Origin: Alphaproteobacteria bacterium
Lineage (GTDB): Bacteria > Pseudomonadota > Alphaproteobacteria > SMXQ01
NCBI GenBank assembly: GCA_033720855.1
Contig: JAWWBR010000002.1
Coordinates: 972-64,971 of the forward strand
Direction of reading: 5' to 3'
Length of the DNA stretch: 64,000 nucleotides
Of the stretch, positions 5,045 to 49,357 are shown in pieces. Made by a program: the position numbers and the translations under genes. The notes under the pieces are model-generated. The model saw only the letters and a program-made list of their open reading frames with translations. It was not told the DNA's origin and ran no database searches. Each line of letters begins with the position of its first letter. Position 1 is the stretch's first letter.

Positions 5045-5436
5045 GAGCAATGGCCTCCGCTCGCTCTCACGACCTGTTACCTTCCGTGACGGGGACAACA
5101 TCCCGCTTCTGCGGTGTACCGCTGTCGGACATGACCCTACTGCAACTTCGCGACGCAAAATGGCATCTATTTTAGGTGTCGGTCGATCCTCACCCCTGAC
5201 AGAAAATCTGGAATCACATGGTGAGCACAATCTGACCGCCCCAATCTGCGCGTTCCCGACGCCGACCGGGACACAACTCTATCAGAGCCCCCATGCGTGC
5301 GAAAGCCGCGTGCACCGGATCGATTCGACCTATCATCCAAGCGGAGGGTTGCGCTTTTTTTGCGATCCAGACGTTGGCCGCGTGACGGGGCGGGCACTGC
5401 CGGTAGCCAGCGCGATTCTGGCGAGGCGGAGCCGCC

Positions 5437-16021: not shown

Positions 16022-18499
16022 TTGAACACCGATCGCTTTGCAACTGTTGCGTATGGTCTGGCCCTGCTCGGAATCCTGCTGTTGCCATCGGCCGGTGCGG
16101 CCCTGGCGCAGGAGGACGTGCTTAACCCCGAGGTTCGCTACGATGTTCTTCGCCATCAGTTGAGCATGGCGATTCGCGCCAAGAAGCCTCGCGAAACCAT
16201 CGACATCATCGCCAAACTGCGAAAATCGCCTCTCGGCATCAGTGGCGAGATCTTGTTCTATGAAGGTCACGCCTATTATCAGCTGAAGGAGTGGACGAAT
16301 GCCTACCGCTCCCTCGTTGCCTACCTCAACACGGTTGGCCGCAAAGGCCGAAACTACAAGGTGGCGATCGGATTGTTTGTCGAGGCCGAGCGCGCGATCA
16401 AGTCCCGAAAACGCGAATCGGAAGCATCGGCGCGGGCCGAGCGCAGCTGGTCCTTGGCGGCGTCGGCGTACGACCGTCTCAAGCCGCAACGCGACGCCTG
16501 GCGGGAAAAGGTCGTGACCTTCGGCGGGCCCCGCAACGATTCCGCCTGGGTCATGGCGCGCAGGGCCGATGGGGGATTTCTGGTGGGCGGAACCTTCGAA
16601 CAAAAGGCGGACAAGAAGACACGGCAAAAAGCCAGCCGCAGCATGGGGCTGATGGCCTTGACCAAAAGCGGGCGCATGGCCTGGAACCGGATTCCCCTCG
16701 GCCCCGCAGAAGACGGCGCCATCAAGTCGCTGACGGCGCTGCCCGACGACGGCTTTCTGATCGGCGGCATTCACCGGGGCTTCCAGATCGCCGCCCGCAT
16801 GGATCGCAACGCCGTTCCCATCCGCAATCACGACGGCAAGCCCTGGGTCAGCCCCCTGGCAAAAGCCAAAGACGGCTCGATCGCGGAGGTCGTAAGGCTT
16901 GCCAACGGCGACGTGCTGGCGATCGGATCGGAGCGCGTCACCAAAGACGGCAAGAGTCCCCGGCTACCCTTCGTGGTTCGGCTGTCCAAAGACGGAAAGC
17001 CTTTGGGCAAGACCGTCTTTACCGGAGATGCGGCGCGGTTCTGGCACGACATTACCGCCGCCGTGAGGATGGAAGGCGGCGACATCCTCGCCGTCGGCAC
17101 GACCCGCCCGCAAGCCGCCTGGGACACCCGGTCGGGCCTAGGCTATCTGTTGCGCGTCACCGAAGATGCCAAGATGGTTTGGGCGCGGAGGGTGCCGGCC
17201 CGCGGTCAAGGCGAGATCCAATTTTCCGGCGTGGCTCGCGCCAAAGACGGCGGCCTTTTGGCCGTGGGACAAGAGGGCAAGCGCCTGCTGTTGTTCAAGG
17301 CTTCCGCTGCAGGCGAAGAGGAATGGCGCAAGACGCTCGCCTATCGCAGCCCCATGCCCGCCGGGGCAGGCGATCTTTGTGCGGTCTCCGACCTGATCCC
17401 GCAGCTGAAGAAATCCAGCAAGTTCCTCGACCGCCCGCTGCCGACGGCGGACCGGATCGCGGCGGTGCGCGGCCTGGCCTGTCCCCAAGGCGCGCCACTC
17501 GCATCGGCGACCGGCATAATCCGTCACCAGGATGGTTTTCTCGTCCTCGGCCTTCAGGCGCCGGGCCCAGGGGAAAAGGTCGATATCCGGCTAATCGCTT
17601 TGGACCACGCGGGTACTATCCAGTGGGACAAAGTCTATGGCCATGACGGTTTCGATATTGCCACCAGCGCCCTGCCCACCGAAGACGGCGGCGCCATCAT
17701 TGCCGGGGCGACCGATTCCATCGGCGCCGGCGGGCGTGACATCCTGATCTTCAAGGTCGACAAGGATGGCAACTTTGCGAACTGGTCGGCCCTCGGCCCA
17801 CCGGCCGGGCCGAAGCCGGCAACCGCCGCCAAGTCGCCCGCCGAAACGGCCGTCCCATCATCACCGAAACCCAAACCCGGGGCCGCCGCAACGCCGGAGG
17901 AGGGTAAGCCGAAGGATACAGACGCCAAGCAGGCCGCGCCATTGGCACCCGAGGCGGAGGCCGAGGCTGTTGCAACTCCGGAGGAGGGTAAGCCGGAGGA
18001 TACAGACGCCAAGCAGGCCGCGCCATCGGCGCCCGAGGCGGAGGCCGAGGCTGTTGCAACTCCGGAGGAGGGTAAGCCAGAGGATACAGACGCCAAGCAG
18101 GCTGGTTCCGGCGCGCCGCCTCGGCCCGAACCGGAAGCTCGAGCCGAGCCGGAAGCGGAAACGGAGGACGATGGCGCCCCCAAACCGGACGCGCCGGAGG
18201 CATCGGCTTCGCCCAAAGCGGTGATCGAGGACCCGGAGGCGACACCGGCCGCTGAAGACCCCGGCACCCCGAAAAAGGCGGATGCGGGCGCCGGGGACGA
18301 GTCGCTGGGGACGCCGAAGACGCAAGGGCAGGGCGCCTCTCCGCCCGGGGCTTCGCAAAACAGCGACGAGCCGCCCGCAACCTCGTTCCGCTCGATCTTC
18401 GGCTCCATCTTCGGCGGATCGGAGGAAGAGAAATCAGCCCCCACGGATCAGTCCGGCGACGGAGACAAGACGCCGCCGGCTTCCGGCGAGACGGAATAA
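16022..18499 (+). CDS. Large secreted or periplasmic protein. Domain order is signal peptide, an N-terminal helical (TPR-like) region, about seven beta-propeller-like DGG-[FL]-L-x-GG repeats, and an acidic Pro/Ala/Glu-rich C-terminal tail with 28-aa tandem repeats.
   Basis: ORF 16022..18499, 825 aa. The signal peptide cleaves at ALA-QE. Repeated motifs include ADGGFLVGG, DDGFLIGG, GGDILAVG, DGGLLAVG and DGGAIIAG. Confidence 0.75.
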   Translation: MNTDRFATVAYGLALLGILLLPSAGAALAQEDVLNPEVRYDVLRHQLSMAIRAKKPRETIDIIAKLRKSPLGISGEILFYEGHAYYQLKEWTNAYRSLVAYLNTVGRKGRNYKVAIGLFVEAERAIKSRKRESEASARAERSWSLAASAYDRLKPQRDAWREKVVTFGGPRNDSAWVMARRADGGFLVGGTFEQKADKKTRQKASRSMGLMALTKSGRMAWNRIPLGPAEDGAIKSLTALPDDGFLIGGIHRGFQIAARMDRNAVPIRNHDGKPWVSPLAKAKDGSIAEVVRLANGDVLAIGSERVTKDGKSPRLPFVVRLSKDGKPLGKTVFTGDAARFWHDITAAVRMEGGDILAVGTTRPQAAWDTRSGLGYLLRVTEDAKMVWARRVPARGQGEIQFSGVARAKDGGLLAVGQEGKRLLLFKASAAGEEEWRKTLAYRSPMPAGAGDLCAVSDLIPQLKKSSKFLDRPLPTADRIAAVRGLACPQGAPLASATGIIRHQDGFLVLGLQAPGPGEKVDIRLIALDHAGTIQWDKVYGHDGFDIATSALPTEDGGAIIAGATDSIGAGGRDILIFKVDKDGNFANWSALGPPAGPKPATAAKSPAETAVPSSPKPKPGAAATPEEGKPKDTDAKQAAPLAPEAEAEAVATPEEGKPEDTDAKQAAPSAPEAEAEAVATPEEGKPEDTDAKQAGSGAPPRPEPEARAEPEAETEDDGAPKPDAPEASASPKAVIEDPEATPAAEDPGTPKKADAGAGDESLGTPKTQGQGASPPGASQNSDEPPATSFRSIFGSIFGGSEEEKSAPTDQSGDGDKTPPASGETE
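17888..18112 (+). repeat. In-frame 84-bp tandem repeat, about 2.6 copies. It encodes ATPEEGKP(K/E)DTDAKQAAP(L/S)APEAEAEAV.
   Basis: Copies at 17888-17971 and 17972-18055 differ at about 4 positions. A third, partial copy runs 18056 to about 18112. Confidence 0.85.
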
Positions 18500-18533: not shown

Positions 18534-19907
18534 CTATTTACCGATTCGCGGCTTGATGACCGCGATCAGCGAGGGCGCACCCTCGATCCCGAAATCGTTG
18601 TCGTTGAGCAGCGCGATCGTGCCATCACCCAATAGCGCCATGCCTTCCAGCTTCTCAGGTATGTCCCCATAGGCATCGCCGTCGAACGCAAGCGCCTTTG
18701 ACACTGGCCGGATGGCGGACCTGGATACAAGGATCTGCTCGAGGCTCGGCCGTGTCGACTCCCGGTCCCAGCGGGATCCGAGGATATTCGTCGCGGTGCC
18801 GAGGTCGACCGCGAAAAGTTTCGTGGACTTGCGAATTCGTTCCAGGACGAGAAGCCGATCGCCCCCTATGGCCGTCATCGCGCTGATCTTGACCGCGCTT
18901 TGTTTGTCCGAATCATCGCGGCGAAAGCTTTCCGGTCGCTCCAGCACGTAAACGAATTCACCCACTGCCTTTTGCGCGGTTCTGTCGAACTTATACAAAC
19001 GGATATTGCGGCTGCGCTTCGCGTCTTTTGCCCGGGGATTCGCGAGCGGGCCTTGGGTCGCGAAATAGAGGAACCGCTCGTCAGGGCTGAGGGCGAGGGA
19101 TTCCAGGCCGCGGTTCCTCCGGCGCTTGGCGAGCATTCGGGGCAACCCTCCGGAAACCTGGTACCTTTCGGTCCGGATTCCAGACTCCATGCCAAAGGGC
19201 ACGAGTCGCAAAGTGACCCGGCCCGACGGCGATACCCGCAACAGGGACGGCGCGCTCTCATCGGCGATCCAATAGCTCCCGTCGCCCAGCCTCACCATGG
19301 CCTCCGGGTCCACCGCGGCCATATCCCGCTTGAGCGCTTTTCCCTCGGCGTCGAAAGCAGGACGGGAGTCCCCCTTTCCGGGGGGAAGGAAAAGTCCGCT
19401 CAGCGGCTTGCCGTCCCGGTCTTTCAATACGACGCTGTCAAGCACCCGGAACCGTCCGTCGGCATCGAGCCGGAGCGTATAAATGGATGGGGCATAGGCG
19501 GGCAAGGGATGGATGAGGGCCTTTTTGAGGCCCGCGCAAAGGGCATCGCGCGTGAGGGTCGTCAGTTTTGCCCCTTTCTTGCAACCAAATAGGGGGCCGG
19601 CATCGGTGATCGTCTGCAAAACCATGGGCGGCATGGTGGGATGGCGAAAGGCACCGGAACCCAGGCCGGCTCGGAAGCGCAGGCTGATCCCATTTGGAAA
19701 GCGGGCAACCCCTAAATCCAGCCTGGGATCGGAGCTGGAATAAATTTTTGGCGATGAACCAGGCGCATCGGCCGCCCCACTCGCCGTCCCAGAACAAAAG
19801 AGCATTGCGGCGGTCAACAGGGCGCAAAAACCCCTGCCGTTCCTAAAAAACCGCCCCGCGCGCTCCCGGCCCACCCCCAGGGGCGGTATTTTCTTCTGCT
19901 CATCCAT
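18534..19907 (-). CDS. Secreted phytase-like esterase family protein (PF13449-like).
   Basis: ORF 18534..20024 on the - strand. The start is likely MDEQKK... (codon 19905-19907) with an AAGGGGGTG RBS. A signal peptide is present. The C-terminal LEGMALLGDGTIALLNDNDFG is characteristic of the family. Confidence 0.65.
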   Translation of the reverse strand: MDEQKKIPPLGVGRERAGRFFRNGRGFCALLTAAMLFCSGTASGAADAPGSSPKIYSSSDPRLDLGVARFPNGISLRFRAGLGSGAFRHPTMPPMVLQTITDAGPLFGCKKGAKLTTLTRDALCAGLKKALIHPLPAYAPSIYTLRLDADGRFRVLDSVVLKDRDGKPLSGLFLPPGKGDSRPAFDAEGKALKRDMAAVDPEAMVRLGDGSYWIADESAPSLLRVSPSGRVTLRLVPFGMESGIRTERYQVSGGLPRMLAKRRRNRGLESLALSPDERFLYFATQGPLANPRAKDAKRSRNIRLYKFDRTAQKAVGEFVYVLERPESFRRDDSDKQSAVKISAMTAIGGDRLLVLERIRKSTKLFAVDLGTATNILGSRWDRESTRPSLEQILVSRSAIRPVSKALAFDGDAYGDIPEKLEGMALLGDGTIALLNDNDFGIEGAPSLIAVIKPRIGK

Positions 19908-20107
19908 GGGGCACCCCCTTGAAGAACGCGCGCTCATTTCACGGTGAATTCCAAAAAACGGCCGATTTGAGAGACCTAAAAAAACGTTAGAAAACATGAG
20001 GATATCGGTGTGCTTGTTAAGCAAATCATAACCAAATTCCGATCATTTTAAAGGTATGCATCACGAATGAAACAAGTCCTGTTCCACCTAAGATAAAGGA
20101 AATTGTC

Positions 20108-21052
20108 ATGGGTAATGGAAATGCTGCCTTGACTTCCGCCGTGGCCCGCCGCATGCGGCGGGCGAAATACAGCGCCGTCACCGCGGTCCTAGGCGTTTCG
20201 GTTCTTGCCTTTTCGGCCTTCGGCGCCGCCGCCGAGACCAAGATCGTCTTCGGCGCCTATTCGTCGGACAAACCTTCGGCGATGATCGCGCAAGTGCACC
20301 CGACCCTTGATGCCATCGCCAAAAAGATGATGGAGATGTATGGCGAAAAGGTGTCGTTCCGCATGCAGATCGTGCGCGGCTACAAGAAGGGTGTCGATCA
20401 CCTGGTTGCGAAGAAATTCGATATCATGCGCCTGGGCCCCGCGTCCTACGTCATGGCCAAGAAACGCGCGCCGCAAATCACCATTTTGGCGATGGAGAAC
20501 AAGCACGGCAAGAAAACCTTCAACGGGATCATCGCCGTCCACAAGGACAGCACGCTGACAAGCCTCGACCAATTGCGTGGCCGGACCTTCGCATTCGGTT
20601 CCAAGCGTTCGACCTTGGGACGCTTCTTCGCCCAGCTGACCTTGACCGAGGCCGGCGTCCTTGCGAAGGACCTTGCGCGTTTCGAGTATCTCGGACGCCA
20701 CGACAAGGTGGGCCGAGCCGTTGGCGCCAAACTCTTCGAGGCCGGCGCCCTCGAGGGAACCACCTTTGCGAAGCTCGTGCGCAAGGGTGTTCCCATCCGC
20801 GCCCTGGCCAAATTTTCCAACGCCACGCGGCCCTGGATCGTCAGGGAAGGGATGAACCCCGGGCTTGCAGACAAGATTCGGAAGGCCATGCTTGCCGTGA
20901 CCGACAAGGCGGCCACCCGCGCGCTGCGGTTCGACGGCTTCCTGCCGGGCGACGATTCGGACTACGCGCCTACGCGGATGGCAATCCAGGAGAATCATCT
21001 ATTTTTCGAAGGTTTCACGGGCTTCAAAACCCAGCAGCAAAGCCGCCGCTGA
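20108..21052 (+). CDS. PhnD/SsuA/transferrin-family periplasmic substrate-binding protein.
   Basis: ORF 20108..21052. A signal peptide and the conserved PhnD-like core are present. An AAGGAAA RBS lies upstream. Confidence 0.8.
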   Translation: MGNGNAALTSAVARRMRRAKYSAVTAVLGVSVLAFSAFGAAAETKIVFGAYSSDKPSAMIAQVHPTLDAIAKKMMEMYGEKVSFRMQIVRGYKKGVDHLVAKKFDIMRLGPASYVMAKKRAPQITILAMENKHGKKTFNGIIAVHKDSTLTSLDQLRGRTFAFGSKRSTLGRFFAQLTLTEAGVLAKDLARFEYLGRHDKVGRAVGAKLFEAGALEGTTFAKLVRKGVPIRALAKFSNATRPWIVREGMNPGLADKIRKAMLAVTDKAATRALRFDGFLPGDDSDYAPTRMAIQENHLFFEGFTGFKTQQQSRR

Positions 21053-21084
21053 TTTGAAATCAGTGGCCCCCAAAACCCTGGCCG

Positions 21085-22563
21085 ATGGTGAGGGTGCGAG
21101 TGCCGCACTTTAGACTAAGTTCGCAAGTGCTTATTTCCCTGGTCCTGTTGGCGGTCATCACCGCCTTCGGGACCGGGCTTGCGATTCAATGGTTCGAAAG
21201 ATCCTACCTGGTGTCCCAGATCACCGAACGCGCCAATGACAAACTGCGCATCCTTGTCGCGTCGTCGCTGGACGATCTGATCAGTGAGGATGTCCCCCGC
21301 CTGGAGACGACCGTCCAACAGCTGGCGGAGAAAGACCCGAAGCTGGTCGGCGTCACCATCCTCAACGAAGAAAAGGCCGAACTCTTCGCGTGGCGGAAAA
21401 AGCCCTTTCCGCCGAGGGAAGACGTCTACGTTTTTTCGAATAAGGTTGATTTTCACGGCCAGCATTTCGGCACCATTACGATCCTTTGGAACAAAAGGCA
21501 GAGCGAACAGGCCTTTATCCTTCACTCCTACCGCATCGCGGTGTTCGTCAGCTCCACCTGTTTCGTGATCGGATTGCTGGCCTTCTTCGTCATTCGCATC
21601 CTCGTGGTCGAGCCCGTCCATACCATCGCCAATCGGGCGCTCAATTTCCGGCGACACATCTTTGACGACGGCAAAAAAGTGGGTTCCTACGCCTCTTCGG
21701 AGCTGAAGCGTCTGGATGACGCTGTGAACTCGTTGGGCGAACTGCTTCAGTCGCAGGAAATGAGGGAAACGGAACTCAAGACCGCCAAGGAACTTGCCGA
21801 GACCGCAAACCGCGCGAAATCGAATTTCCTTGCGAATATGAGCCATGAACTGCGTACCCCTTTGAACGCCATCTTGGGCTTCTCCCAAATCATGGAATCC
21901 CAAATATTCGGCCCCCTCGGCGACGCAAAGTACCTGGCCTACGTGAAGGACATCAGGGTCTCGGGCGACCATCTCTTGAAGATCATCACCGAAATCCTGG
22001 ACGTATCGAAAATCGAAGCCGGCAAGCTCAGCCTGGACATCGGCCGCGTGCACCTGCCCAAGACCATCAAGTATGCGCTTGGGCTTCTGAGTTCGGATAT
22101 CGAGAACGCCAAATTGGAGTTTATGGTCGACGTCCCCGATTCGGTGCCGGAGCTTCAAGCCGACGAGCTGCGGATGCGTCAGATCATCATCAATCTCGTG
22201 TCCAACGCGCTCAAATTCACGCCGGAGGGGGGAACCGTCTCTCTGAACTTGAAGTGGCGGCAGTCCGAGGGGGTGGAGATTTGCGTGAAGGACACCGGCG
22301 TCGGGATCACCGAAGATAAAATCCCCCGTATCCTGTTGCCGTTCGAGCAGATCCACGACGCCATGACGGAAGCGAACCAGGGGGCGGGACTTGGGTTGCC
22401 CCTCGCCAAGGCGCTGACCGAGCTTCAGGGCGGAAGGCTGACCCTGACAAGCACATTAGGCGAGGGGACCGAAGTCAGAATCTTCTTCCCGAGCGAACTT
22501 CTTCTTACCTCGGACGTGGATCTCCCAAGCGACGGGGAAGGGCCGGCGAAGAGGATTGCTTAG
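21085..22563 (+). CDS. Membrane sensor histidine kinase. Domain order is TM, periplasmic loop of about 130 aa, TM, HisKA, HATPase_c. There is no receiver domain.
   Basis: ORF 21085..22563. H-box [17 protein letters not shown]-box and G1/G2 boxes are present. It sits immediately downstream of the substrate-binding protein gene. Confidence 0.85.
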
Positions 22564-22564
22564 G

Positions 22565-23824
22565 CTAGAACCTCCCGAACCATCCCTCTTTCTTCTTTAT
22601 CTGGCACTCGGCCCGCCAGTTGGCCGGAATCGCGTCGGCGACAACCTTTCGGAACCGTTCGAGGGGGCAGAACCCGCCACCGCAGCCCGGGATCTCGATG
22701 GTCTTCTCGGCCTCCTTGGACACGAATTTCAGCCGCACCGAATAGGCTTTGGGCGCGGTTTCGTGAAGCTCGAACGCGTAACGGGAGCCGAGCGGCGGAA
22801 CGCGGCCCTTGAACAGCGGCCCCTCGGTCCGCGCGGTCTCGATCCCAAGCGCCGCTTCGAGCCCAAGCACCGTGCGCTGATGGCCGGAATAGATGTAAAG
22901 CTTGCGCGCGGTTTTGGGGTCTTTGGCGTATTTCAGGAAATTGCCCAGGACCTCGCCGACCATCGGCCCACCGGTCAAACGGCCCATCTTCTTGCCCAGG
23001 AATTGATGGTGATAGTTCCAATCCGAGAGCAGGCGCAGAAGCTCCATGTCCTTCTCGGTGATCTCGCTGGACAAGGGTTTCTTGTGGGCAATGAACGCCG
23101 TCAGGGGTTCATAGATTTCGTTGATCCCGTAGAGGATCCTTGCCGGACTCTTGCCCTCGTTGATGCCGGTAATCGACGCTATGCGCCGAAGGAACGGCTC
23201 GAAACGTTTCGCCTGCGCCTTGTAGAGCTTGCTCTTGGGAAGCGCCTTCACGAATTGCCGGTAGCGCTGGCAGTTCGCCTGACCGGTCCAGGGGCGCAGC
23301 ACGGCATCATTCCTGAGCGACACCGCGTGAATGGGCACCGGGGTGAAAGCCAAATCGGGGCGCGGTACCGCCTTGAGCGAATTATCGTAAACCGCGGGGT
23401 CCGGGCCTGTCCCCAGGGGGTAAAGGCCAAGCGCCAAAACCTGGGCGGTCTGCAATGCCCGGTCGGCATTGCTGGCCCGGAAATAGACTTCCTTGAGATT
23501 GTATCGCGGGGATATAAGCCCCAGCTGGTCGACGTACAACTTCCGCAATTCCTGGCCGTTGGCATAGGTCTTGGTCACACCGATGGCGGTGAGCTGCCGG
23601 TACCCCATGGGCCAGTCCGTCTTGAGCTTGGGCGGGCTGTATTTGGGCGAGATCACGCTGTGGCGGAACAGCAGGCTCACGGACCTTAGAGTCTTGCGGT
23701 CCGCCTCGAGGGCCTCAGAAGATTGGGCGATCGCCCCCTCGCTCACGATGCTCGAGAGCAATATCGTCGCGAGCGCGATCGCTGACCCAGCCAGCCAAGA
23801 GGAATTTTTCGCGCATGTAATCAT
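22565..23824 (-). CDS. Secreted histidine acid phosphatase-family protein (branch 2) with non-canonical active-site motifs: RHSVISP instead of RHGxRxP, and HQ instead of HD.
   Basis: ORF 22565..23824 on the - strand. A signal peptide is present. The overall AppA-like pattern is conserved (FRHS...P...G.L...G...RT..SA.A...GL.P ... SGHQ). Confidence 0.65.
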   Translation of the reverse strand: MITCAKNSSWLAGSAIALATILLSSIVSEGAIAQSSEALEADRKTLRSVSLLFRHSVISPKYSPPKLKTDWPMGYRQLTAIGVTKTYANGQELRKLYVDQLGLISPRYNLKEVYFRASNADRALQTAQVLALGLYPLGTGPDPAVYDNSLKAVPRPDLAFTPVPIHAVSLRNDAVLRPWTGQANCQRYRQFVKALPKSKLYKAQAKRFEPFLRRIASITGINEGKSPARILYGINEIYEPLTAFIAHKKPLSSEITEKDMELLRLLSDWNYHHQFLGKKMGRLTGGPMVGEVLGNFLKYAKDPKTARKLYIYSGHQRTVLGLEAALGIETARTEGPLFKGRVPPLGSRYAFELHETAPKAYSVRLKFVSKEAEKTIEIPGCGGGFCPLERFRKVVADAIPANWRAECQIKKKEGWFGRF

Positions 23825-24527
23825 GAGACGTCTCCATTGCCATGGCGTATTTCGATAGGGTTTGCTGCTCCATGCCCAGATACCGAAGCTTTTGCAGAAG
23901 GGTTTCCGATATCCGGTCGTTGAACTTCAATTCGACGATGAAATGGGTCGGCGGCACGACCGCGATAAGGTCCCCGGGCGGTACGTTCAAGGTGGTGGAA
24001 AGGGAGCAATGCAGTTCCTCGTCTAAGGTAAGGCGGACATTGTCCTGGAACTGCCCGTTGAGCGCGGTCCGGTAATAGACCACGGTCGTGACCGGGGAGA
24101 GGGCAAAGCGGTCGTGCAAATATTTGAATTCCGCGAGAACCGAGTTTTCGAGTTCGCGATCGCTCAGAAACAGCGGACCGCGTGAGAGAAGACGCCGGGC
24201 AAGATCCAAGTCGATCGGCACACGCCGTTTCTCGACGATGCGGTCGTAGCGCGCCTTCAGTTCCAAAAAGACCGCGGATGGCGGTGCGGACGGTGCGGAT
24301 CTGTAGAGGCGAATGCGGGGCTTGATGCGAACCAAATCGCCTTCGCGTTTTTCACCGTAAAAACGGTAATTGGGCGAATCGAAATATATCGAGTAGTTGA
24401 CGTATGTCCCCTGGCTGTCGCCGTTGGGGTCAGTCGAGAAAAAGCCGCCGATCGTCTCCCGCAGTTCCGCTTTGCGCGTCGCCTCGACGAGATACTTGAT
24501 CTCATATCTGTTGGTGAAAGCGAACAT
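23715..24527 (-). CDS. VTC-domain (polyphosphate-polymerase-like) protein.
   Basis: ORF 23715..24527 on the - strand. The YEIKYLV... motif of VTC/CYTH-like domains is present. The 3' end overlaps the phosphatase gene by about 110 nt in another frame. Confidence 0.7.
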   Translation of the reverse strand: MFAFTNRYEIKYLVEATRKAELRETIGGFFSTDPNGDSQGTYVNYSIYFDSPNYRFYGEKREGDLVRIKPRIRLYRSAPSAPPSAVFLELKARYDRIVEKRRVPIDLDLARRLLSRGPLFLSDRELENSVLAEFKYLHDRFALSPVTTVVYYRTALNGQFQDNVRLTLDEELHCSLSTTLNVPPGDLIAVVPPTHFIVELKFNDRISETLLQKLRYLGMEQQTLSKYAMAMETSHDYMREKFLLAGWVSDRARDDIALEHRERGGDRPIF

Positions 24528-24599
24528 TCACTGGGACCGCGGATCAAGCTTCCTAGCAACGGGCCGTAGAGCGCCGGCCTAAATCGATCAATTGGTCCC

Positions 24600-25289
24600 T
24601 CATGCGTTGACCGTGCCTTCACCGACCAGCAGGCTCACCGACAGCGGATTAACCGCCTGGGACAGCTTTTCCACGAGCTGGTCGTAATCGACCCCTCGCT
24701 TGAGGTGCACCTCATAGACGACGTCTTCCAAATCGTCGCCGGTTTCCATGCGGCTCACGGAAACCACCGACATGCGATCGCACATGGTTTTGCAGAGCTC
24801 CGCAATCCTGTCCCGGTCTCCGGGCCGCATGCGCATCTTCAGGACATAACCACTGGACCGCACGTCGCCGAAGCGCCAGTAATGCATGGCCACCACGACG
24901 ATGATCATGAAGCCGACGAAAATACCCGCGAAATCATAGAACCCGGTGCCGCAAGCCATGCCCACGGCGATGCCGGCGAAGAGAAAGACGAGATCCTTGG
25001 TGTCCTTGACCGGTGTCCGGAATCTGACGATCGACATGGCCCCCACCAGGGCAAAGGCACGGGCGATGTCGGAGCCGATGATGACCATGATCAGGGTGAC
25101 GGTAATGCCAACCAGAATGAGGGCTTGGACAAACGACTTGGAGTAGGAATACCCGCCATGGGTCGCCATGTAGAGTTTGGCGAGAATGCCGTTGAGGACT
25201 GCGGTCAGAAGCAGGGCCAACCCGATGTCGAGTGGGGTCGCCGAACTCAAGAGCGCCGTTTCTTGCAAAATCTGGTCGCTGAAATCCAT
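24600..25289 (-). CDS. DUF4956 domain membrane protein, the usual partner of bacterial VTC-domain proteins.
   Basis: ORF 24600..25289 on the - strand. Several TM helices are present. The DUF4956 signature region is IVRFRTPVKDTKDLVFLF. Confidence 0.7.
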   Translation of the reverse strand: MDFSDQILQETALLSSATPLDIGLALLLTAVLNGILAKLYMATHGGYSYSKSFVQALILVGITVTLIMVIIGSDIARAFALVGAMSIVRFRTPVKDTKDLVFLFAGIAVGMACGTGFYDFAGIFVGFMIIVVVAMHYWRFGDVRSSGYVLKMRMRPGDRDRIAELCKTMCDRMSVVSVSRMETGDDLEDVVYEVHLKRGVDYDQLVEKLSQAVNPLSVSLLVGEGTVNA

Positions 25290-25590
25290 CCTGACTGCAT
25301 CCTCCCTGTAAGGTCGCGGGTCTCACATTCGAAACCGCCACGCGCACTCAACCCAGAACCGACCGCACCGCGAAAGCCATCTCTCCGGTCATCACCCCGA
25401 CACCGGGGGAACCATGGCGTGAGTCAATGCTGTTGAGAGCCCCCAAGGTGCCTGTAACCGGCTATCGGCCATAAACCCATACCTCACACCGAGGATTCTC
25501 AGGCGCAATAAGCCAACCAGCCCGGTTAACAAACTTGGTAAAGAGTTTATTAACAGCCTGTGAATAATTGCAAGTGCATAATTATTAAAA

Positions 25591-25606
25591 GATTATCATG
25601 ATAATC
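25591..25606. promoter_or_regulatory. Perfect 16-bp palindrome GATTATCATGATAATC inside an AT-rich island (about 25525-25650). It is a candidate operator for a metalloregulator (Fur/Zur-like hexamer content) or another dimeric transcription factor.
   Basis: I read this directly from the sequence. It lies about 300 bp upstream of the DUF4956-VTC-phosphatase operon start. A flanking TTAACA...TTAACA direct repeat and a small hairpin (25654-25669) are nearby. Confidence 0.45.
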
Positions 25607-25776
25607 ACACAGGCCTTTGAGCGAATTACGCTAAGCACCTGATTTCATGACAACATAGGGGGGCTTCGCAAGTGCGAAGAGGCCTGTCGCGGCCCGCAGC
25701 GACCCAGGGGATGTGGTTCCCCTGCCAGGACAGACCAAAAATAGCGGTGGTTTTTTGAGGGTGCCCGGAAGCGCGG

Positions 25777-26112
25777 CTAGCGCCCCATGCCGAGGAGCCC
25801 CCGCGTCCACCATTCAGGGCGGCCGCGACGCCGTTTCAAGACCTCGCGGCGACAGGTTGCGGGCACGGGATGCCGGCTTATCAGACGCTCGAACAGCTTC
25901 GGGGAAACCAGGGCGGCGAGCTTCATGACCATCGCCTCGGACAGGTAGGGCTGCTGAATGATCGCAGCATGAAGCGATTCATCGCGGGGGTCCGCATCCA
26001 GCGCGGCCATCATCTGCGCTTCTTTCGCCTCGGCGCTATCATCGTCGGGCTGATCGATCGCCGACGCCTCGTCAGGCTGCCGCGCGAGAGGATCCAACAT
26101 TGAAGAATTCAT
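25777..26112 (-). CDS. Hypothetical small acidic protein of about 111 aa.
   Basis: Part of ORF 25777..26340 on the - strand. The start is likely MNSSML (codon 26110-26112) with a GGAGG RBS. I recognise no family for it. Confidence 0.4.
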   Translation of the reverse strand: MNSSMLDPLARQPDEASAIDQPDDDSAEAKEAQMMAALDADPRDESLHAAIIQQPYLSEAMVMKLAALVSPKLFERLISRHPVPATCRREVLKRRRGRPEWWTRGLLGMGR

Positions 26113-30074: not shown

Positions 30075-31304
30075 TTATGACTTGCAGTCGATTGTCTTGG
30101 CTTCGAACCGCCCGTTGCGGTCCGCCGCCGTGACCGTGCAAGCCATCCCGGCTTTCAGCGCCTTGCGCTTGCCCTTGGCGCCATTGATCATGATCTTGCT
30201 GCGGGACTTGGAGACCCGCACCTTCTTGCCGCCGATCTCGAGCACCCGGCCGCCCTTCTTGACCGAGACCAAATTTCCCTTGAGCTTATCGACGGGAACC
30301 GCCATCAGGCCCTTGAAGCGGGCGACGACGCTTTCCGGCGCATTCAGCACCTGGGCATAGATCTTGACCATGTCCTCGCCGCTGGTATAGCCGATCGAGC
30401 GGCGCGCCTTTTTGGCTTCGGCGAGCAGGTCCTTGTCCTTCAACGCGTCGCGGAAGGCCACGCGCAGCGCCTTCAAGACATCGGGCTTGAGGCCAGGCGG
30501 CCCAAAGAATGGCCGGCCGGCAATGTCTTGTCCGCCGGCAAAGGCGGCCAGCGCCGCACCGTTCTTGCTCATCACCTCGGTCGCCTGCTCGGCGCCGTCG
30601 GTTTCCGGATGGTAGCCCATGCGGCCGAGGATGGTGAGCTTCTCGTCCCTGATGAAGGTGCGCAGGCTCTCGTAGCTGCCGCTGGTGGCCTCGACGTCCC
30701 CGCGGGCGATGGCCAGAACTTTTTCCTCGCTGCCGTCGTATCCGGTTATGACGCGGACGGGATAGCCGTCCACCTCCAGCAACTTGACCCTCTGGTAGGA
30801 GGCGCTGCCGCGGCCGGTGCCCGAAAACTTGATCTCGCCTTTATAGGTCTTGAGTTGGGTCAGGGATTTCACCGGATGATCGCCCTTGATCACCCAGACC
30901 CAGGTTGACGCGGTGGTCGAGCCGATCGGGTTCAACTTGGCCACGTCATACTTGATACCGGGCTCGTTCAGTTTCTGGGCCAATGTCACGCCGCGGGTCA
31001 GGATCGCGATCACGGTGCCGTCCCGCTTGGCCCGATTCATCAGGTAATTGGCGGCAACGATACCGCCGGCGCCCGACATGTTGGTGGCAATCGATCTCGG
31101 CTTGCCCGGCAGGTACTTGGGCATGTGCCGCGCGATCAAGCGACCGTAGAAGTCATAGCCTCCGCCGGGGCTAGAGCGGATGACGACGTTGAAGGTCTTG
31201 CCTTTCCAACTGGGACCGGCGGCCGCCGCCTGGTCGACGCACAACGCGCCGAGGCCGATTACGGCTCCAAGACCGAGGCTTAAAAAGACCGATTTCCTTG
31301 ACAT
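30075..31304 (-). CDS. tctC: Tripartite tricarboxylate transporter substrate-binding protein (TctC/Bug family) with an extra C-terminal domain of about 75 aa ending ...AGMACTVTAADRNGRFEAKTIDCKS.
   Basis: ORF 30075..31304 on the - strand. A signal peptide is present. The Bug-family core motifs (IRSSPGGGYDFYGRLIARHM..., AGGIVAANY) are present. It sits immediately downstream of tctB and tctA. Confidence 0.8.
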   Translation of the reverse strand: MSRKSVFLSLGLGAVIGLGALCVDQAAAAGPSWKGKTFNVVIRSSPGGGYDFYGRLIARHMPKYLPGKPRSIATNMSGAGGIVAANYLMNRAKRDGTVIAILTRGVTLAQKLNEPGIKYDVAKLNPIGSTTASTWVWVIKGDHPVKSLTQLKTYKGEIKFSGTGRGSASYQRVKLLEVDGYPVRVITGYDGSEEKVLAIARGDVEATSGSYESLRTFIRDEKLTILGRMGYHPETDGAEQATEVMSKNGAALAAFAGGQDIAGRPFFGPPGLKPDVLKALRVAFRDALKDKDLLAEAKKARRSIGYTSGEDMVKIYAQVLNAPESVVARFKGLMAVPVDKLKGNLVSVKKGGRVLEIGGKKVRVSKSRSKIMINGAKGKRKALKAGMACTVTAADRNGRFEAKTIDCKS

Positions 31305-31389
31305 ACCGAAGTCTCCCGTCTGTCGTGAATTTCTCTTTGATTGGCGTTTCGATCCCCATTACGTGCTGCCGGTGGGGAACACTCCATCC

Positions 31390-31878
31390 CTAATCCCATC
31401 CCAACATTTCGAACACCACGCCCGGCGGGAAGGGAAGGTGCAGCAGGTTGTTGAACAGCAGCCAAGTCGCTCCTCCGGCGACCACCGGCATGGCAATGGT
31501 GACAACCCACCCCTCGCGGTGCCGCAGGAGATACAGGAATACCATCACCGGAATGGCGACGAAAAAGCCCAGAACCCAGAGGGCAAAGCCGAAGGCATAA
31601 ACCCAGACAAACAGTTCGAAGGCCCGCTTTCTGCCCTCCACGGAAGCTTCTTCCTCGGTGAAATCGACGTCGGCGCCGGTCTCACGGGATTCCGGGGTCT
31701 GTGAGAAAAACACCTCGCGCACGATCTGCCAGGTCAGTAGCGCAAGGGCGATGATGGCGATCGTATAGGGGTAGAGGCGCGCCTGCTCCGGCATGTCCTT
31801 CGACTCGTAAAGCACATAGGCGAAGACGATGATGAAGAATACGGTCAGCAGCGAGCGAATCTGGAGACGGATTCCCAT
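31390..31878 (-). CDS. tctB: Tripartite tricarboxylate transporter TctB small membrane subunit.
   Basis: ORF 31390..31878 on the - strand. The product has four TM helices and lies between tctA and tctC. Confidence 0.75.
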   Translation of the reverse strand: MGIRLQIRSLLTVFFIIVFAYVLYESKDMPEQARLYPYTIAIIALALLTWQIVREVFFSQTPESRETGADVDFTEEEASVEGRKRAFELFVWVYAFGFALWVLGFFVAIPVMVFLYLLRHREGWVVTIAMPVVAGGATWLLFNNLLHLPFPPGVVFEMLGWD

Positions 31879-31879
31879 G

Positions 31880-33376
31880 TCAGACCTCCACGTTCCGCTC
31901 GAAGCGTTTTGAGAACCTGTCCTGCCACAGCGGGTAGGCGACGCTCGCCACCAACAGGGCGAAGATCACCAGAACCCCCGGCCGGAACAGGAACCCGAAG
32001 CCATAAAGCTGGACCGAGGTCCACATATAGCGTTCAGCGATGGGGCCCAGAACCAGGCCCAAAAGCAGCGGCGGACGCGGCCAACCGGCCATCCGCATGA
32101 AATACCCCAGGGTCCCGAAGGCGATCATCACCAGGATGTCCTCGAAGCGCCCGGATGCGGCGAAGCTGCCGATGACCGCCATCGCCAGGATCATCGGAAT
32201 CATCAAGGTGGGACGCAGTTTGGTCGCCATCGCCAGCTGCCGTGTGAAGGCCAGACAGAGGATCGAGGTCAGCACGCTGCCGATCAGCAGAAGCCAGATC
32301 ATGGAGAACGTGACGTCGAGGTCCTTGGTCAGCATGTCCTTGCCCGGCGTGATGCCGACGATGATCAAACCGCCGAAGATCAGGGCCAGGGTACTGGAAC
32401 CGGGGATACCGAAGGCGAGGGTCGGGATCAACGACCCGCCCTCCTTGGCATTGGTCGCGGCGTCGACGCCGATCACGCCGCGCACGTCGCCGGTGCCGAA
32501 GGTTTCCCGCGCCCCCTTGCAGGTTTGCTTGGCGTGGCCGTAGGCGAACCAGTCCGCGACCGAAGAGCCCAGGCCGGGAATGATGCCGACCCAAACGCCG
32601 ATAAAGCTGCAGCGGAGAATCAGCCACCAGTGCTTGAAGGCATCCTTGATTCCCTGCCGCCGCCCGGTGGTGAGGTCACCCAGAGGAACGTCGGAGATTC
32701 CGGTCCCCTTGCTCGCCATGTAGAGCATTTCCGGAATGGCGAACAGGCCAATGGTCATGGGGACCAGCTTGATGCCGTCGACCAGGTAGAGCTGATCGAA
32801 GGTAAAGCGATGGATGCCGGTCAGGATATGCACCCCGATCATCGATATCGCCAGGCCGAAGGCGCCGACGATGATGCCCTTGACCGGGGCCTTTCCGGAA
32901 AGGGCGCCGACCATGGCGACGCCGATCATGACCAGCATGAAGAATTCAGGCGGGCCCAGCAGAAGCACTAGAGGCCGGAGCACGGGGATCGCAGCCAACA
33001 GCACGATGGCGCCGATGATGCCGCCGATGGCCGAGGAGGTGAAGGCCGCGGCCAGCGCCCGCGCCGCCTCGCCCTTCTTGGCCATGGGATAGCCGTCCAT
33101 GATGGTCGCCTGGGAGCCACCCCCGCCCGGCACGCTGAACAGGATGGAGGTAATCGAATTGGCGGTGTTGCTGACCGCCCAGATGCTGACGATGAGCGCC
33201 ACCGCCTCGAATTTGTTGAGAACGAAGGCAATGGGCAGAAGCAGGGCAATGGCGGTCTTCGAACCGATGCCCGGCATCGCCACCAGGGTGGAGCTGATGA
33301 CGATGCCGAACATCATCAGCAGAAATGCCTTCCAATGGAGTATGCCCAACAGGCCTTCGATGGCAGCTTCAATCAC
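31880..33376 (-). CDS. tctA: Tripartite tricarboxylate transporter TctA large permease subunit.
   Basis: ORF 31880..33376 on the - strand. The 498-aa product is a multi-TM protein with the TctA (DUF112) pattern. Confidence 0.9.
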   Translation of the reverse strand: MIEAAIEGLLGILHWKAFLLMMFGIVISSTLVAMPGIGSKTAIALLLPIAFVLNKFEAVALIVSIWAVSNTANSITSILFSVPGGGGSQATIMDGYPMAKKGEAARALAAAFTSSAIGGIIGAIVLLAAIPVLRPLVLLLGPPEFFMLVMIGVAMVGALSGKAPVKGIIVGAFGLAISMIGVHILTGIHRFTFDQLYLVDGIKLVPMTIGLFAIPEMLYMASKGTGISDVPLGDLTTGRRQGIKDAFKHWWLILRCSFIGVWVGIIPGLGSSVADWFAYGHAKQTCKGARETFGTGDVRGVIGVDAATNAKEGGSLIPTLAFGIPGSSTLALIFGGLIIVGITPGKDMLTKDLDVTFSMIWLLLIGSVLTSILCLAFTRQLAMATKLRPTLMIPMILAMAVIGSFAASGRFEDILVMIAFGTLGYFMRMAGWPRPPLLLGLVLGPIAERYMWTSVQLYGFGFLFRPGVLVIFALLVASVAYPLWQDRFSKRFERNVEV

Positions 33377-34463: not shown

Positions 34464-35486
34464 CTATTGCATCAGCTTCTTGAACTGCGCCATGACCATG
34501 TCCGATGCGCCGAGGATGTCCAGATTGGTCTTGCGCATTTGCTCCGGGTCGGTCGGCGATATGCCCTTCCGCGCCTTCTTGGCCTCGGCCAGCAGCTTCG
34601 GATCCTTGAGCGCGGCCGCGAACGCCGCCCGCAGGATCTTTACCCGGTCGGCAGGAACGTTGGGGGCCGTGTAGAAGGGGCGCCCCGCCTCCAGCGGCGC
34701 CACCAGCAGGCTGGCCAGGGAGCGCCGCTCGGCCGAGACCACGTCGCGCAGATCAACGAGATCGCGCGGCAGCTCGGGGTGATCGGCCCCGAGCTTGCCG
34801 ATGATCTTGAATTTTTCCTCTTTGATCGCCGTGCGCATGGTTTCGTAGCTGCCGGCCGTCATCTCGACCTCGCCGCGGGCCACCGAAAGCACCTTTTCGC
34901 CCGTCGAGCCGTAGCCGGTGATGATCCTCATGGGATAGCCGTCCAGTTTCATCACCATCGAGCGCTGATAGGCGCCGCCGCCGGGCCCCGTGGTGCCGAC
35001 CTTGATCTCCCTTCCGCCGCGTTTGATGTCCTTGAGAGAGTTCAACGCCGAAGTCTGCGCGACAAGGAACACCGCCGTGCTGGACGCGGTGCTGCCGAGC
35101 GGAATCAGATTGCGGACATCGTATTTGACGCCTTTGTTCTTGCTTCTCTGGACGACGGCGATGGCACGGCTCAGGATGGCGATCTCGGTGCCGTCCCGCT
35201 TGGCCCGGTTGTGCATGTAATTGGCCGCAACGATACCGCCCGCGCCCTTCATGTTGATGGGGATGGAATTGGGATTGCCGGGAATATGGCGCGGCATGTG
35301 GCGCGCCATCAGGCGGCCGTAGAAATCATTGCCGCCGCCGGGGCTCGACCGGATGATCACTTTGAGGGTTTTGTCCTTGTAGAAATCCTCCGCCGCCATC
35401 GCCGGCGCCGGGTCAGCAAGCATGGCGGTCGTCGCCAAGGCCGCACAGGTCATCGTGGTCGCAAACGATCGTTGCCAAAATCTCAT
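34464..35486 (-). CDS. TctC/Bug-family periplasmic substrate-binding protein with no C-terminal extension.
   Basis: ORF 34464..35576 on the - strand. The start is likely MRFWQRSFATT... (codon 35484-35486). The Bug core motif is IRSSPGGGNDFYGRLMARHM. Confidence 0.8.
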   Translation of the reverse strand: MRFWQRSFATTMTCAALATTAMLADPAPAMAAEDFYKDKTLKVIIRSSPGGGNDFYGRLMARHMPRHIPGNPNSIPINMKGAGGIVAANYMHNRAKRDGTEIAILSRAIAVVQRSKNKGVKYDVRNLIPLGSTASSTAVFLVAQTSALNSLKDIKRGGREIKVGTTGPGGGAYQRSMVMKLDGYPMRIITGYGSTGEKVLSVARGEVEMTAGSYETMRTAIKEEKFKIIGKLGADHPELPRDLVDLRDVVSAERRSLASLLVAPLEAGRPFYTAPNVPADRVKILRAAFAAALKDPKLLAEAKKARKGISPTDPEQMRKTNLDILGASDMVMAQFKKLMQ

Positions 35487-35694
35487 GAGTCCGCCTCTCT
35501 GCCTAGTGTGATGGGCGATACCGCCCGATAATGCTTTACGCTTGTTGTTCGTCAAAGCATGAGCGCTCGGCGCCATCCTGTCAACGACCCCAGCGCGCGT
35601 CCCTAGACAGCTCTGACCGTCGCCTGTAGCCTAACCGCCAATACCCGACCGGCCATCAAGGCCCTGAGGCAAGGGATCAACACGGAGCAACGCC

Positions 35695-39615: not shown

Positions 39616-39820
39616 CGATCTTTTCCTCCCTCCAAGCTTTGGATATTCCCCACAGCATGATAAGCGCGCGCCACCCTTGCAAGGGAGCAAAAAAGCTCGA
39701 CCGCGATGGGCAGTTGAACCCCTTGCTGTGGTCGGCTAGCATCCCCTCCGAAATGTCGTCGACCGCTCAAGCTCAGAAACAATGGGTTGCGGTCTGGTTT
39801 TTTCAACACGGGAGACTCGA

Positions 39821-46059: not shown

Positions 46060-46066
46060 GCGGTAC

Positions 46067-47833: not shown

Positions 47834-47860
47834 CGGCCTCAGTCCCGGTCGTCGGACGAC

Positions 47861-48922: not shown

Positions 48923-49357
48923 GCCTGTGTCCTCCCTTACCTTTGATGGCACTTGACTTGTGAAACTATACGCGTGCCCGGACGGGCCTGCCAACCGGGA
49001 GCTTCGCGGCCGGCGGTCCCGGCTCGTCGCCGCGATCCCGGCGGGCCGGCATATGCGAGAATGTCGGGATCGGCGCTCCGGCGCGCGCTATGCGCGACGA
49101 CCCGGTCGACGGTCTGATCCATGGTCTCCCCCTGTGCTCCCGCGCGTTAAGCGCGGCGGCGCCGTTGGCCCGGCGCCGTCTGGTATTTCGCCCTCGTGAT
49201 GTTAGCGCAAATCGCTCATCGGGAAAGGCCTATTCGGGAACCGCTGATACCCGGCAAACTCACGGCCGCGTGAAGGCGCCGGTTGACGAATTCCTCGTGC
49301 CGACCGGACGCCTGAGTGGCATCTGGAATCCCCTTACCATGCGTGGTTAGATGCCGC

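Follow-up and report, generated by a model that had tools for sequence, protein, structure and literature searches.

To our knowledge, few kinases that depend on a solute-binding protein (SBP) have been characterized, and the only signals that we know of for proteins of the Pfam family PF12974 in SBP-dependent sensing are the arsenic oxyanions recognized by AioX, ArxX, and ArrX and, for XAC2383, a ligand that is poorly defined. XAC2383 is reportedly a PF12974-type periplasmic receptor that is co-transcribed with, and encoded beside, XAC2382, a protein of the membrane that has only one periplasmic domain, of the Cache type. In AioX-type systems, a stand-alone periplasmic PF12974 SBP is found beside a kinase that has two transmembrane (TM) segments and an sCache-like periplasmic domain, and it is the SBP that is regarded as binding the ligand on behalf of its partner kinase (PMC8050422, PMC5908839). 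The gene pair described here is an uncharacterized member of this known class (AioX/AioS; XAC2383/XAC2382), the true precedents being AioX/AioS, ArrX/ArrS, and XAC2383/XAC2382, all of which use PF12974 proteins. The family also serves as a periplasmic kinase sensor in TtrS and ThsS, the tetrathionate and thiosulfate kinases; there it is fused into the kinase, whereas our locus encodes a separate secreted SBP and a kinase with an sCache-like domain of its own.

The preliminary description of this DNA had likened the pair to LuxP/LuxQ and TorT/TorS. TorT belongs to a binding-protein family other than PF12974. According to a review, LuxP is a member of Peripla_BP_4 and not of PF12974, the sensors of LuxQ and HptS are bimodular and dCache-like, and that of TorS is a bimodular four-helix bundle. 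Both the SBP and the sensor families thus differ, and the likeness is a functional analogy only; LuxP/LuxQ, TorT/TorS, and HptA/HptS are analogues of the pair and not members of its class.

Organization of the locus

The whole stretch of DNA analyzed (the window) is 64 kb long. The pair and the elements between its genes are as follows.

20108..21052, + strand: SBP gene, encoding a 314-aa secreted SBP of the PtxB/PhnD superfamily (ORF list, Pfam)
21050..21062, no strand: 6-1-6 palindrome TGATTTGAAATCA, which opens with the SBP stop codon TGA
21053..21084, + strand: intergenic spacer of 32 nt, or 47 nt with the GTG start at 21100
21085..22563, + strand: kinase gene, encoding a membrane sensor histidine kinase of 492 aa (487 aa from GTG 21100) without receiver domain

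Both open reading frames lie where they had been placed initially, 32 nt apart when the kinase starts at ATG 21085. Gene callers are split between this start and GTG 21100, which has a Shine-Dalgarno-like GAGGG 5 nt upstream. In relatives, the spacer between the SBP and sensor genes measures 3 to 100 nt. No terminator on the + strand was found in the SBP-kinase spacer, which is consistent with co-transcription of the two genes. Scans for promoters and terminators around the operon gave results at or below shuffle expectation, and an Rfam scan of the 18-27 kb region of the window returned no match. The Pho-box CTGTCATN4CTGTCAT, with up to 3 mismatches, was matched 3 times against 2.5 expected, with no match in a promoter region.

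The inverted repeat reported earlier does exist and does overlap the stop codon, but it is located at 21050-21062 and not, 2 nt off, at 21052-21064. The window contains 28 perfect palindromes of the 6-1-6 type, this one included, and none of the 17 related loci inspected has it, not even the one that is 80% identical, so we regard it as a chance feature. Upstream of the DUF4956 operon (see below) there is a palindrome of 16 bp; this, too, was dropped as a regulator site, since it is unconserved in relatives.

Transporter and regulator genes were surveyed by a Pfam scan of the approximately 50 ORFs of the entire window. The sole ABC transporter (genes at 44962-48994) comes with an SBP_bac_8 protein of its own, and none is encoded within 24 kb of the pair. 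Similarly, the sole response regulator gene (1602-2375) is 17.7 kb off and adjoins a different hybrid kinase gene (2414-5230). These data bear out the initial statements that neither a permease or ATPase nor a cognate response regulator is encoded in the vicinity.

Conservation and genomic context of the gene pair

The sensor family was gathered by a full-length kinase search and an exhaustive profile search; a search with the kinase N terminus only matched two fragments. A transporter-independent SBP gene conserved beside the gene for a kinase with a periplasmic domain is one mark of the functional class of SBP-dependent sensor kinases, and an SBP gene was found directly upstream of the sensor-module gene in 21 of 23 informative contexts. 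Of the Kiloniellales/Pelagibius loci, 14 are long enough for this order to be read, and all of them have it; it was also kept in more distant lineages in which the flanking genes are unrelated. SBP genes were equally found upstream of genes for GGDEF-EAL and hybrid-kinase proteins bearing the same periplasmic module, and the SBP and the sensor module were duplicated together in two genomes. The pairing is tight and independent of the output, and on comparative-genomic grounds its conservation strongly supports the original reading of binding-protein-dependent sensing.

In none of the contexts examined is the pair accompanied by genes for an ABC, TRAP, or TTT transporter, and ptxAC/phnCE genes are absent both from the related loci and from within 24 kb of the pair in the window. 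No receiver gene adjoins the pair in the window or in at least 20 related contexts; some relatives have a kinase with a fused REC domain instead. The layout of an SBP with a two-TM kinase is the same as in the three-component systems for arsenic oxyanions, AioX/AioS/AioR, ArxXSR, and ArrXSR; unlike in these, there is no linked response regulator gene and there are no aio, arx, or arr enzyme genes. The GGDEF-EAL members with an upstream SBP gene recall XAC2383/XAC2382, in which the output is a diguanylate cyclase, whereas that of the window protein is a histidine kinase.

A conserved, convergent operon (22565..25289) neighbors the pair and contains three genes, identified by Pfam.

22565-23824, - strand: gene for a secreted histidine acid phosphatase (His_Phos_2)
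23715-24527, - strand: gene for a VTC domain protein
24600-25289, - strand: gene for a DUF4956 protein

This operon is syntenic with the pair in 12 to 13 of 14 Kiloniellales loci and is absent from beside the pair in more distant lineages. As a candidate target of regulation it is confined to this clade. We found no literature linking DUF4956 with VTC. A gene for a phytase-like protein also flanks the pair in the clade of the window. In two other loci (L019 and L022), genes for TauE/SafE anion exporters are located approximately 5 kb or less from the pair.

The binding protein and its ligand

The SBP matches the Pfam family Phosphonate-bd, PF12974, with an E value of 2.8e-44 (151.8 bits versus a gathering cut-off of 27). 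A signal peptide of the Sec type occupies residues 1-42 (n-region RRMRRAK, hydrophobic core, and AAA followed by E at the cleavage site), and the mature protein has the class II two-lobe binding fold. The AF2 model (pLDDT 86.7) consists of a helix at residues 11-36 followed by an alpha/beta fold, and its best Foldseek matches were PtxB, XAC2383 (the solved structures of which include chloride- and ATP-bound forms), ArrX, and AioX; PhnD was matched as well. The nearest solved structures are those of the PtxB/PhnD/HtxB group (Foldseek E=1.9e-23, TM 0.78-0.80), SBPs of phosphite and phosphonate ABC transporters that share with our protein the Pfam family, the fold, and the oxyanion-ligating residues. 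AioX and ArrX are detectable relatives in sequence and structure, but AioX is matched much less strongly (E=1e-10) than PtxB (E=5.6e-31). Orthology to XAC2383 was rejected, since its match (E=6.3e-13, against 5.6e-31 for PtxB) places it in a different SBP subfamily; XAC2383 was also not detected at E<=1e-3 among the matches of a family SBP linked to GGDEF-EAL.

The earlier term "PhnD-like periplasmic binding protein" is accurate as far as PF12974 membership is concerned, but the SBP falls below every NCBIfam equivalog cut-off, including those for PhnD (TIGR03431, 80.6 bits versus 261.1) and PtxB. The residues that ligate the oxyanion in PtxB and PhnD, namely, Tyr, Ser-Thr, and His-Asp, are kept as Y92, S168-T169, and H198-D199, and Y92, S168, T169, and H198 are invariant in the SBP family. 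The specificity-determining cap is Tyr in PtxB and Asp in Escherichia coli PhnD (PMC5700983), whereas the corresponding position is R241 in our SBP and Arg (100/124) or Lys (23/124) in the family. A phosphite-specific PtxB identity was therefore discarded, given that the Tyr cap (Y208 in Te_PtxB, which makes a P-H...pi contact) is replaced. Further differences from PtxB and PhnD are the replacement of the third Ser of the S-T-S loop by Leu/Ile, that of the second pocket Tyr by Phe138, and additional invariant Arg/Lys residues beyond the oxyanion core. The SBP subfamily is marked by the signature R108, R172, R197-H-D-K, and T240-[RK]-P-W. Membership of the AioX/ArxX/ArrX subfamily (Cys106; Tyr88/Tyr131/Ser161/Ser163/His192/Asp210) was also rejected. 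An alignment made transitively through PtxB and PhnD puts Phe138 in place of the second Tyr and Leu170 in place of the second Ser. The arsenite-ligating Cys106 has no counterpart, as the SBP contains zero cysteines, which excludes an AioX-type arsenite mechanism.

The ligand proposed initially, a phosphonate or other oxyanion, is a reasonable guess. What the pair senses outside the cell is probably a phosphate-like anion, a link to phosphorus that is suggested only by superfamily membership, the basic pocket, and the clade-specific neighbors. A genuine though lesser possibility is that the architecture is as proposed and that the ligand contains no phosphorus, being another oxyanion, for example arsenate, sulfate, thiosulfate, tetrathionate, selenate, or bicarbonate. 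It accords with the use of PF12974 sensors for arsenite/arsenate and, in fused form, for tetrathionate/thiosulfate, with a sub-threshold match of the SBP to a putative selenate SBP family, and with the nearby TauE/SafE genes in L019 and L022. It is opposed by the missing cysteines, in the case of the AioX arsenite mechanism, by the nearest relatives in sequence and structure, which bind phosphite or phosphate, and by the flanking genes in the window's clade, which encode a periplasmic acid phosphatase, a VTC (polyphosphate-polymerase-type) domain protein, and a phytase-like protein.

The kinase and its periplasmic domain

The kinase contains the Pfam domains HisKA and HATPase_c and no receiver domain. 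Its parts were delimited as follows.

21124..21192, + strand: TM1, approximately residues 14-36 (hydropathy; continuous helix 11-67 in AF2)
21193..21528, + strand: periplasmic sensor domain, approximately residues 37-148 (~112 aa), PDC/sCache-like alpha-alpha-beta4, no Pfam model
21271..21306, + strand: acidic motif D-D-x-I-S-E-D-x-P-R-L-E, residues D63-E74, at the junction of sensor helices 1 and 2
21529..21609, + strand: TM2, approximately residues 149-175 (hydropathy, AF2)
21610..21774, + strand: HAMP-like linker, approximately residues 176-230, with invariant P177
21814..22023, + strand: HisKA (DHp) domain, Pfam residues 244-313, phospho-acceptor H254 in an SHELRTP motif
22162..22494, + strand: HATPase_c domain, Pfam residues 360-470

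The linker is recognized as Pfam HAMP in 15 of 69 family members. Hydropathy and AF2 reduce the periplasmic loop, previously put at about 130 aa, to about 112 aa, and the domain modeled by AF2 is minimal, with two helices and four strands in approximately 100 aa and no helical insert between the strands. An identity with the CHASE8 sensor (PF17152) was rejected, since the window kinase gave no match at E<=10; in relatives, CHASE8 matches were sub-threshold only (E=0.003-0.015, 16-18 bits versus a cut-off of 27), and a distant relation is possible. The best-conserved residues of the sensor are those of the acidic motif, which is conserved among 66 orthologues and occurs in a loose form in 115 of 146 distant family members as well as in the GGDEF-EAL and hybrid-kinase partners. 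We propose that this motif is the docking site of the SBP and that it probably forms a surface site and not a pocket.

The kinase domain could alternatively sense the ligand directly, with the SBP as an accessory that buffers or presents the ligand or, in its apo form, acts as an inhibitor. The PDC/sCache domains of CitA, DcuS, and PhoQ-type kinases bind ligands directly, and two family members (L021 and L028), which we counted against docking of an SBP, have no adjoining SBP gene. Direct sensing is nevertheless quite unlikely in view of the minimal size of the domain, the concentration of conservation in a motif that is apparently exposed, the SBP gene adjoining the sensor gene in nearly all contexts, and the co-duplication of both. 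That the SBP is an ordinary component of an ABC transporter encoded elsewhere, lying by coincidence beside an unrelated orphan kinase, is highly improbable: PF12974 is mainly a family of transporter SBPs, the nearest solved relatives PtxB and PhnD are transport proteins, and orphan SBP genes exist, but the adjacency is conserved across unrelated flanks and three output types, not a single permease or ATPase gene was found in any context examined, the PhnD equivalog score is far below its cut-off, and the specificity cap is altered to Arg/Lys.

Proposed mechanism and wider meaning

We consider it likely that the SBP and the kinase form a bipartite periplasmic sensor, in which the SBP docks at the acidic motif and the kinase relays to a response regulator encoded elsewhere. 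The ligand, the docking site, and the regulator that receives the signal are inferred parts of this model, as are the physical interaction between SBP and sensor and the sign of regulation. The SBP would be exported and would capture a small, probably phosphate-like oxyanion in the cleft between its lobes. In its liganded form, it would dock at the acidic motif, on the membrane-distal apex of the sCache-like domain, and the resulting change in signaling would pass by way of TM2 and the HAMP linker into the HisKA/HATPase core (H254). The recipient of the phosphoryl group would then be a response regulator or receiver whose gene lies elsewhere in the genome.

A more far-reaching and rather unlikely extension is that the pair represents a widespread, structurally uncharacterized receptor family of approximately 1,000 clusters at 50% identity, in which the near-invariant, unusually basic SBP pocket recognizes a single common signal of the phosphate type from outside the cell, for instance orthophosphate, pyrophosphate, polyphosphate, a nucleotide, or an inositol phosphate. 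In Kiloniellales, it would control the VTC-type polyphosphate enzyme, the DUF4956 protein as the membrane partner of this enzyme, and the periplasmic acid phosphatase. If true, bacteria would be able to sense external phosphorus independently of PstS-PhoR.

The family around this pair is much larger and unnamed; it combines one conserved pocket signature and a conserved sensor motif with kinase, phosphorelay, and c-di-GMP outputs. Identification of the ligand would annotate hundreds of signaling proteins at once and could reveal a second route, besides Pst-PhoR, by which bacteria keep track of external phosphorus or of some other common anion. The same cluster is present in the cultured strain Pelagibius litoralis DSM 21314 (L002/L016), which makes the system experimentally accessible.

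A proposed bipartite sensor composed of a binding protein and a kinase

The best-supported model for the secreted binding protein (SBP) and the two-TM histidine kinase encoded just downstream is a bipartite sensor. In this model, the SBP would capture a small oxyanion and dock onto the sCache-like domain of the kinase, the proposed docking site being the exposed acidic apex motif of the sensor domain. Docking would then alter autophosphorylation at H254 via TM2 and a HAMP-like linker containing the invariant P177.

Genes of the locus and a transporter identified in the Pfam scan of the window
18534-20024 (-): secreted Phytase-like (PF13449) protein, divergent from the SBP gene
20108-21052 (+): SBP, 314 aa, Pfam PF12974
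21085-22563 (+): kinase, 492 aa, HisKA and HATPase_c
22565-25289 (-): operon for DUF4956 (membrane protein), a VTC-domain protein and a secreted acid phosphatase of the histidine type (His_Phos_2)
30075-33376: TctCBA transporter

Both open reading frames (ORFs) were found where the preliminary description had placed them, 32 nt apart if the kinase begins at ATG 21085. Public gene calls differ in this start, either ATG 21085 (492 aa) or GTG 21100 (487 aa), and the spacer may be 47 nt because a GAGGG motif is located 5 nt 5' of the latter. Pfam identified Phosphonate-bd (PF12974, E=2.8e-44) in the SBP, as well as HisKA (residues 244-313) and HATPase_c (360-470), without a receiver domain, in the kinase. 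The inverted repeat TGATTTGAAATCA, previously reported at the SBP stop codon, lies at 21050-21062, 2 nt from its reported place. The 64-kb window has 28 such perfect 6-1-6 palindromes, and this one is missing from every related locus, even the closest relative (80% SBP identity); it was judged to be noise. The G+C content of the segment from the SBP gene to the DUF4956 gene (20000-26000) is 55-59% versus 63% for the whole window, which may stem from AT-rich intergenic DNA or from a history of its own.

A Pfam scan of ~50 GC3-supported ORFs over the entire window revealed a single ABC transporter (44962-48994), which has its own SBP_bac_8 protein, and a single response regulator (1602-2375, +, OmpR type), which adjoins a different hybrid kinase (2414-5230). 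Because of these results, the terms "stand-alone" for the SBP and "orphan" for the kinase hold at the scale of the window. This hybrid kinase (938 aa, -) has a fused NMT1/SsuA-type binding-protein domain as periplasmic sensor, along with PAS, HisKA, HATPase_c and REC domains, and is thus the fused counterpart of the split arrangement at 20108-22563. Additional orphan-looking binding proteins are encoded at 34464-35576 (-), 30075-31304 (-) and 39782-41137 (+). One has weak PF12974 and TctC matches and two belong to the TctC family, only one of which adjoins tctBA; stand-alone SBPs appear to be numerous in this genome.

Conservation of the gene pair

A scan of species-representative genomes retrieved 15 loci; their genomes are all of Kiloniellales, Pelagibius or Rhodospirillales type, and the cultured Pelagibius litoralis DSM 21314 is among them. 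In tblastn searches with the window genes, each of the 14 loci that extend downstream of the SBP gene showed the kinase gene next, in the same orientation. At loci L019, L020 and L022, more distant orthologues of the kinase (35-44% identity) also have an SBP gene directly upstream (gaps of 10, 15 and 31 nt, respectively), with all flanking genes different. The contexts of four distant members of the sensor family were inspected: a PF12974 gene is located directly upstream of GGDEF-EAL proteins in L024 (28-nt gap) and L027 (3-nt gap) and of a PAS hybrid kinase in L026 (37-nt gap), and none adjoins the hybrid kinase of L028. The binding-protein-dependent sensing proposed in the preliminary description is backed by strong comparative evidence, the SBP gene adjoining the sensor gene in 21 of 23 informative contexts regardless of the output domain.

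The members with no PF12974 gene nearby are a 493-aa kinase (L021:8001-9482), with no SBP gene within 8 kb, and the 1157-aa hybrid kinase with Hpt of L028 (L028:4001-7474). Both keep the ISEDxP motif, and their SBPs may be encoded elsewhere or the kinases may work without one. Two loci (L010:12715-14278 and L012:6387-7893) encode an additional SBP paralogue (49% identity) and, after it, a protein of 188 aa that consists only of TM1, periplasmic domain and TM2, with the family motif and no kinase core. The SBP and sensor module have therefore been duplicated as a unit, and the sensor-only protein could be a decoy or adaptor.

The sensor module and its outputs

Hydropathy and an AlphaFold2 (AF2) model covering residues 1-195 of the kinase and computed from 21 orthologues (pLDDT 85 overall, >90 in the periplasmic part), place TM1 at ~14-36 and TM2 at ~149-175. 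The periplasmic loop, initially estimated at about 130 aa, therefore measures ~112 aa. In the model, TM1 forms part of one long helix (11-67); after it come a short helix (70-83), four strands (87-94, 99-104, 114-123, 126-136) and finally TM2. For the periplasmic domain, Pfam gave nothing even at E<=10, and the CHASE8 matches of its relatives were all sub-threshold. Best conserved are D63-D-x-I-S-E-D-x-P-R-L-E74 at the junction of helices 1 and 2, F128-G129 and W135.

Searched with a profile of the sensor module, 1.84 billion cluster representatives yielded 970 proteins (111-1931 aa) at E<=1e-3, of which 371 reach E<=1e-10; many proteins of 160-290 aa were also obtained, which may be of the sensor-only kind or contig-end fragments. 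The window pair is part of a large unnamed family. Among 69 sampled members, HATPase_c was present in 63, a receiver in 43, Hpt in 16 and GGDEF plus EAL in 5. The architecture itself will not surprise a specialist; the family size, the invariant pocket and the ligand question make it a worthwhile and directly testable target.

None of the contexts examined contained an adjacent response regulator, and the nearest receiver in P. litoralis is part of a separate PilS-like system. The window kinase probably passes its signal to a receiver or regulator encoded at an unlinked site, since its core is closest to phosphorelay-type kinases (TorS, BarA, DivJ and LuxQ models), most family members are hybrids with REC, with or without Hpt, and REC is fused to the orthologues in L011 and L020.

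The SBP subfamily and its ligand

The SBP has a Sec-type signal peptide (basic n-region, hydrophobic core, AAA|E), and its AF2 model shows a helix (11-36) preceding the first strand at residue 44. The family profile matched best PtxB proteins (5lv1, E=5.6e-31; 5jvb; 5o2j), then phosphate-bound cyanobacterial PhnD (7s6g) and XAC2383 (5ub3, 6.3e-13), and more weakly AioX (1e-10), ArrX (3e-9) and E. coli PhnD (1.8e-4). Foldseek, run on the AF2 model, also ranked PtxB first (E=1.9e-23, TM 0.78-0.80), followed by XAC2383, ArrX and AioX. SBPs of the distant GGDEF-EAL and hybrid-kinase members carry the entire pocket signature at an overall identity of only 39-46%, and XAC2383 was undetected at E<=1e-3 with a GGDEF-EAL-linked SBP as query. 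Judged from these sequence data, the group is a coherent subfamily, without a solved structure, distinct from PtxB, PhnD, AioX and XAC2383, and probably recognizes one ligand class.

Ligand residues were mapped using profile alignments and the PtxB paper. The ligand-binding His of Te_PtxB (H160) aligns with the invariant H198-D199, the S-T-S loop with S168-T169-L170, and the first pocket Tyr with Y92. The phosphite specificity of PtxB is due to the Tyr cap Y208, replaced by Asp in E. coli PhnD (PtxB paper); the window SBP has R241 there, and of 124 homologues 100 have Arg and 23 have Lys. R108, R172, R197, K/R200 and R246 are also invariant basic residues. The basic pocket and its Arg/Lys cap suggest a tetrahedral oxyanion with an additional oxygen or negatively charged group (for example phosphate, pyrophosphate, a phosphoester or a nucleotide), a tentative assignment that falls somewhat short of probable. 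Conserved neighbours in the window's clade point to phosphorus metabolism; they comprise the periplasmic acid phosphatase, the VTC domain (polyphosphate-polymerase type) and DUF4956, joined in the two closest genomes by the phytase-like protein. The ligand is one that we infer, since this synteny vanishes outside the clade and two other lineages have TauE-type anion exporters close to the gene pair.

Comparison with known systems

The closest logic is that of AioX/AioS, in which a PF12974 SBP is likewise paired with a kinase having an sCache-like sensor (review table PMC8050422; PMC5908839). However, the arsenite site of AioX (Cys106) cannot exist in the window SBP, which has no cysteine; the pair also lacks a linked regulator and arsenic enzymes, and its SBP is of another subfamily. 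It also resembles XAC2383/XAC2382, reportedly a receptor-cyclase pair, but differs in SBP subfamily and output. Because of these differences, the pair belongs to neither system. In TtrS and ThsS the PF12974 domain is fused, whereas the window SBP is separate. The earlier comparison with LuxP/LuxQ and TorT/TorS-like systems stands as an analogy, not as membership. The SBP is not a PhnD or PtxB transporter protein: no transporter genes accompany the pair in the window or in related loci, the cap is altered, and the scores lie far under all NCBIfam equivalog thresholds (PhnD, phosphate/phosphite/phosphonate and putative selenate SBPs).

Flanking genes

In Kiloniellales, the convergent His_Phos_2, VTC domain and DUF4956 block follows the SBP-kinase pair in 12-13 of 14 loci (tblastn), and this arrangement is lost outside the window's clade. 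The VTC domain is the catalytic fold of the eukaryotic polyphosphate polymerase Vtc4. A DUF4956-VTC connection in bacteria was not found in the literature, and the operon is possibly a polyphosphate system of bacteria that awaits characterisation. About 300 nt upstream of it, an AT-rich stretch contains the perfect 16-bp palindrome GATTATCATGATAATC (25591-25606), which looks like a Fur-box-like operator but is unconserved in the closest relative and was rejected. The element CAATTCTGTCACAATTAATCTTGGTTTTT, a possible promoter or regulator site common to Pelagibius loci and absent from the window, is conserved ~170-200 nt upstream of DUF4956 in L003, L005 and L006, with variants in L002, L004 and L007.

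On the other side, the Phytase-like gene is shared by the window and its closest relative (L001) and is missing from the other Kiloniellales loci. The ORF at 16022-18499 (+) encodes a predicted secreted protein of 825 aa without a Pfam match, whose C-terminal third is composed of acidic Pro/Ala/Glu-rich tandem repeats (...ATPEEGKPEDTDAKQAAPSAPEAEAEAV...).
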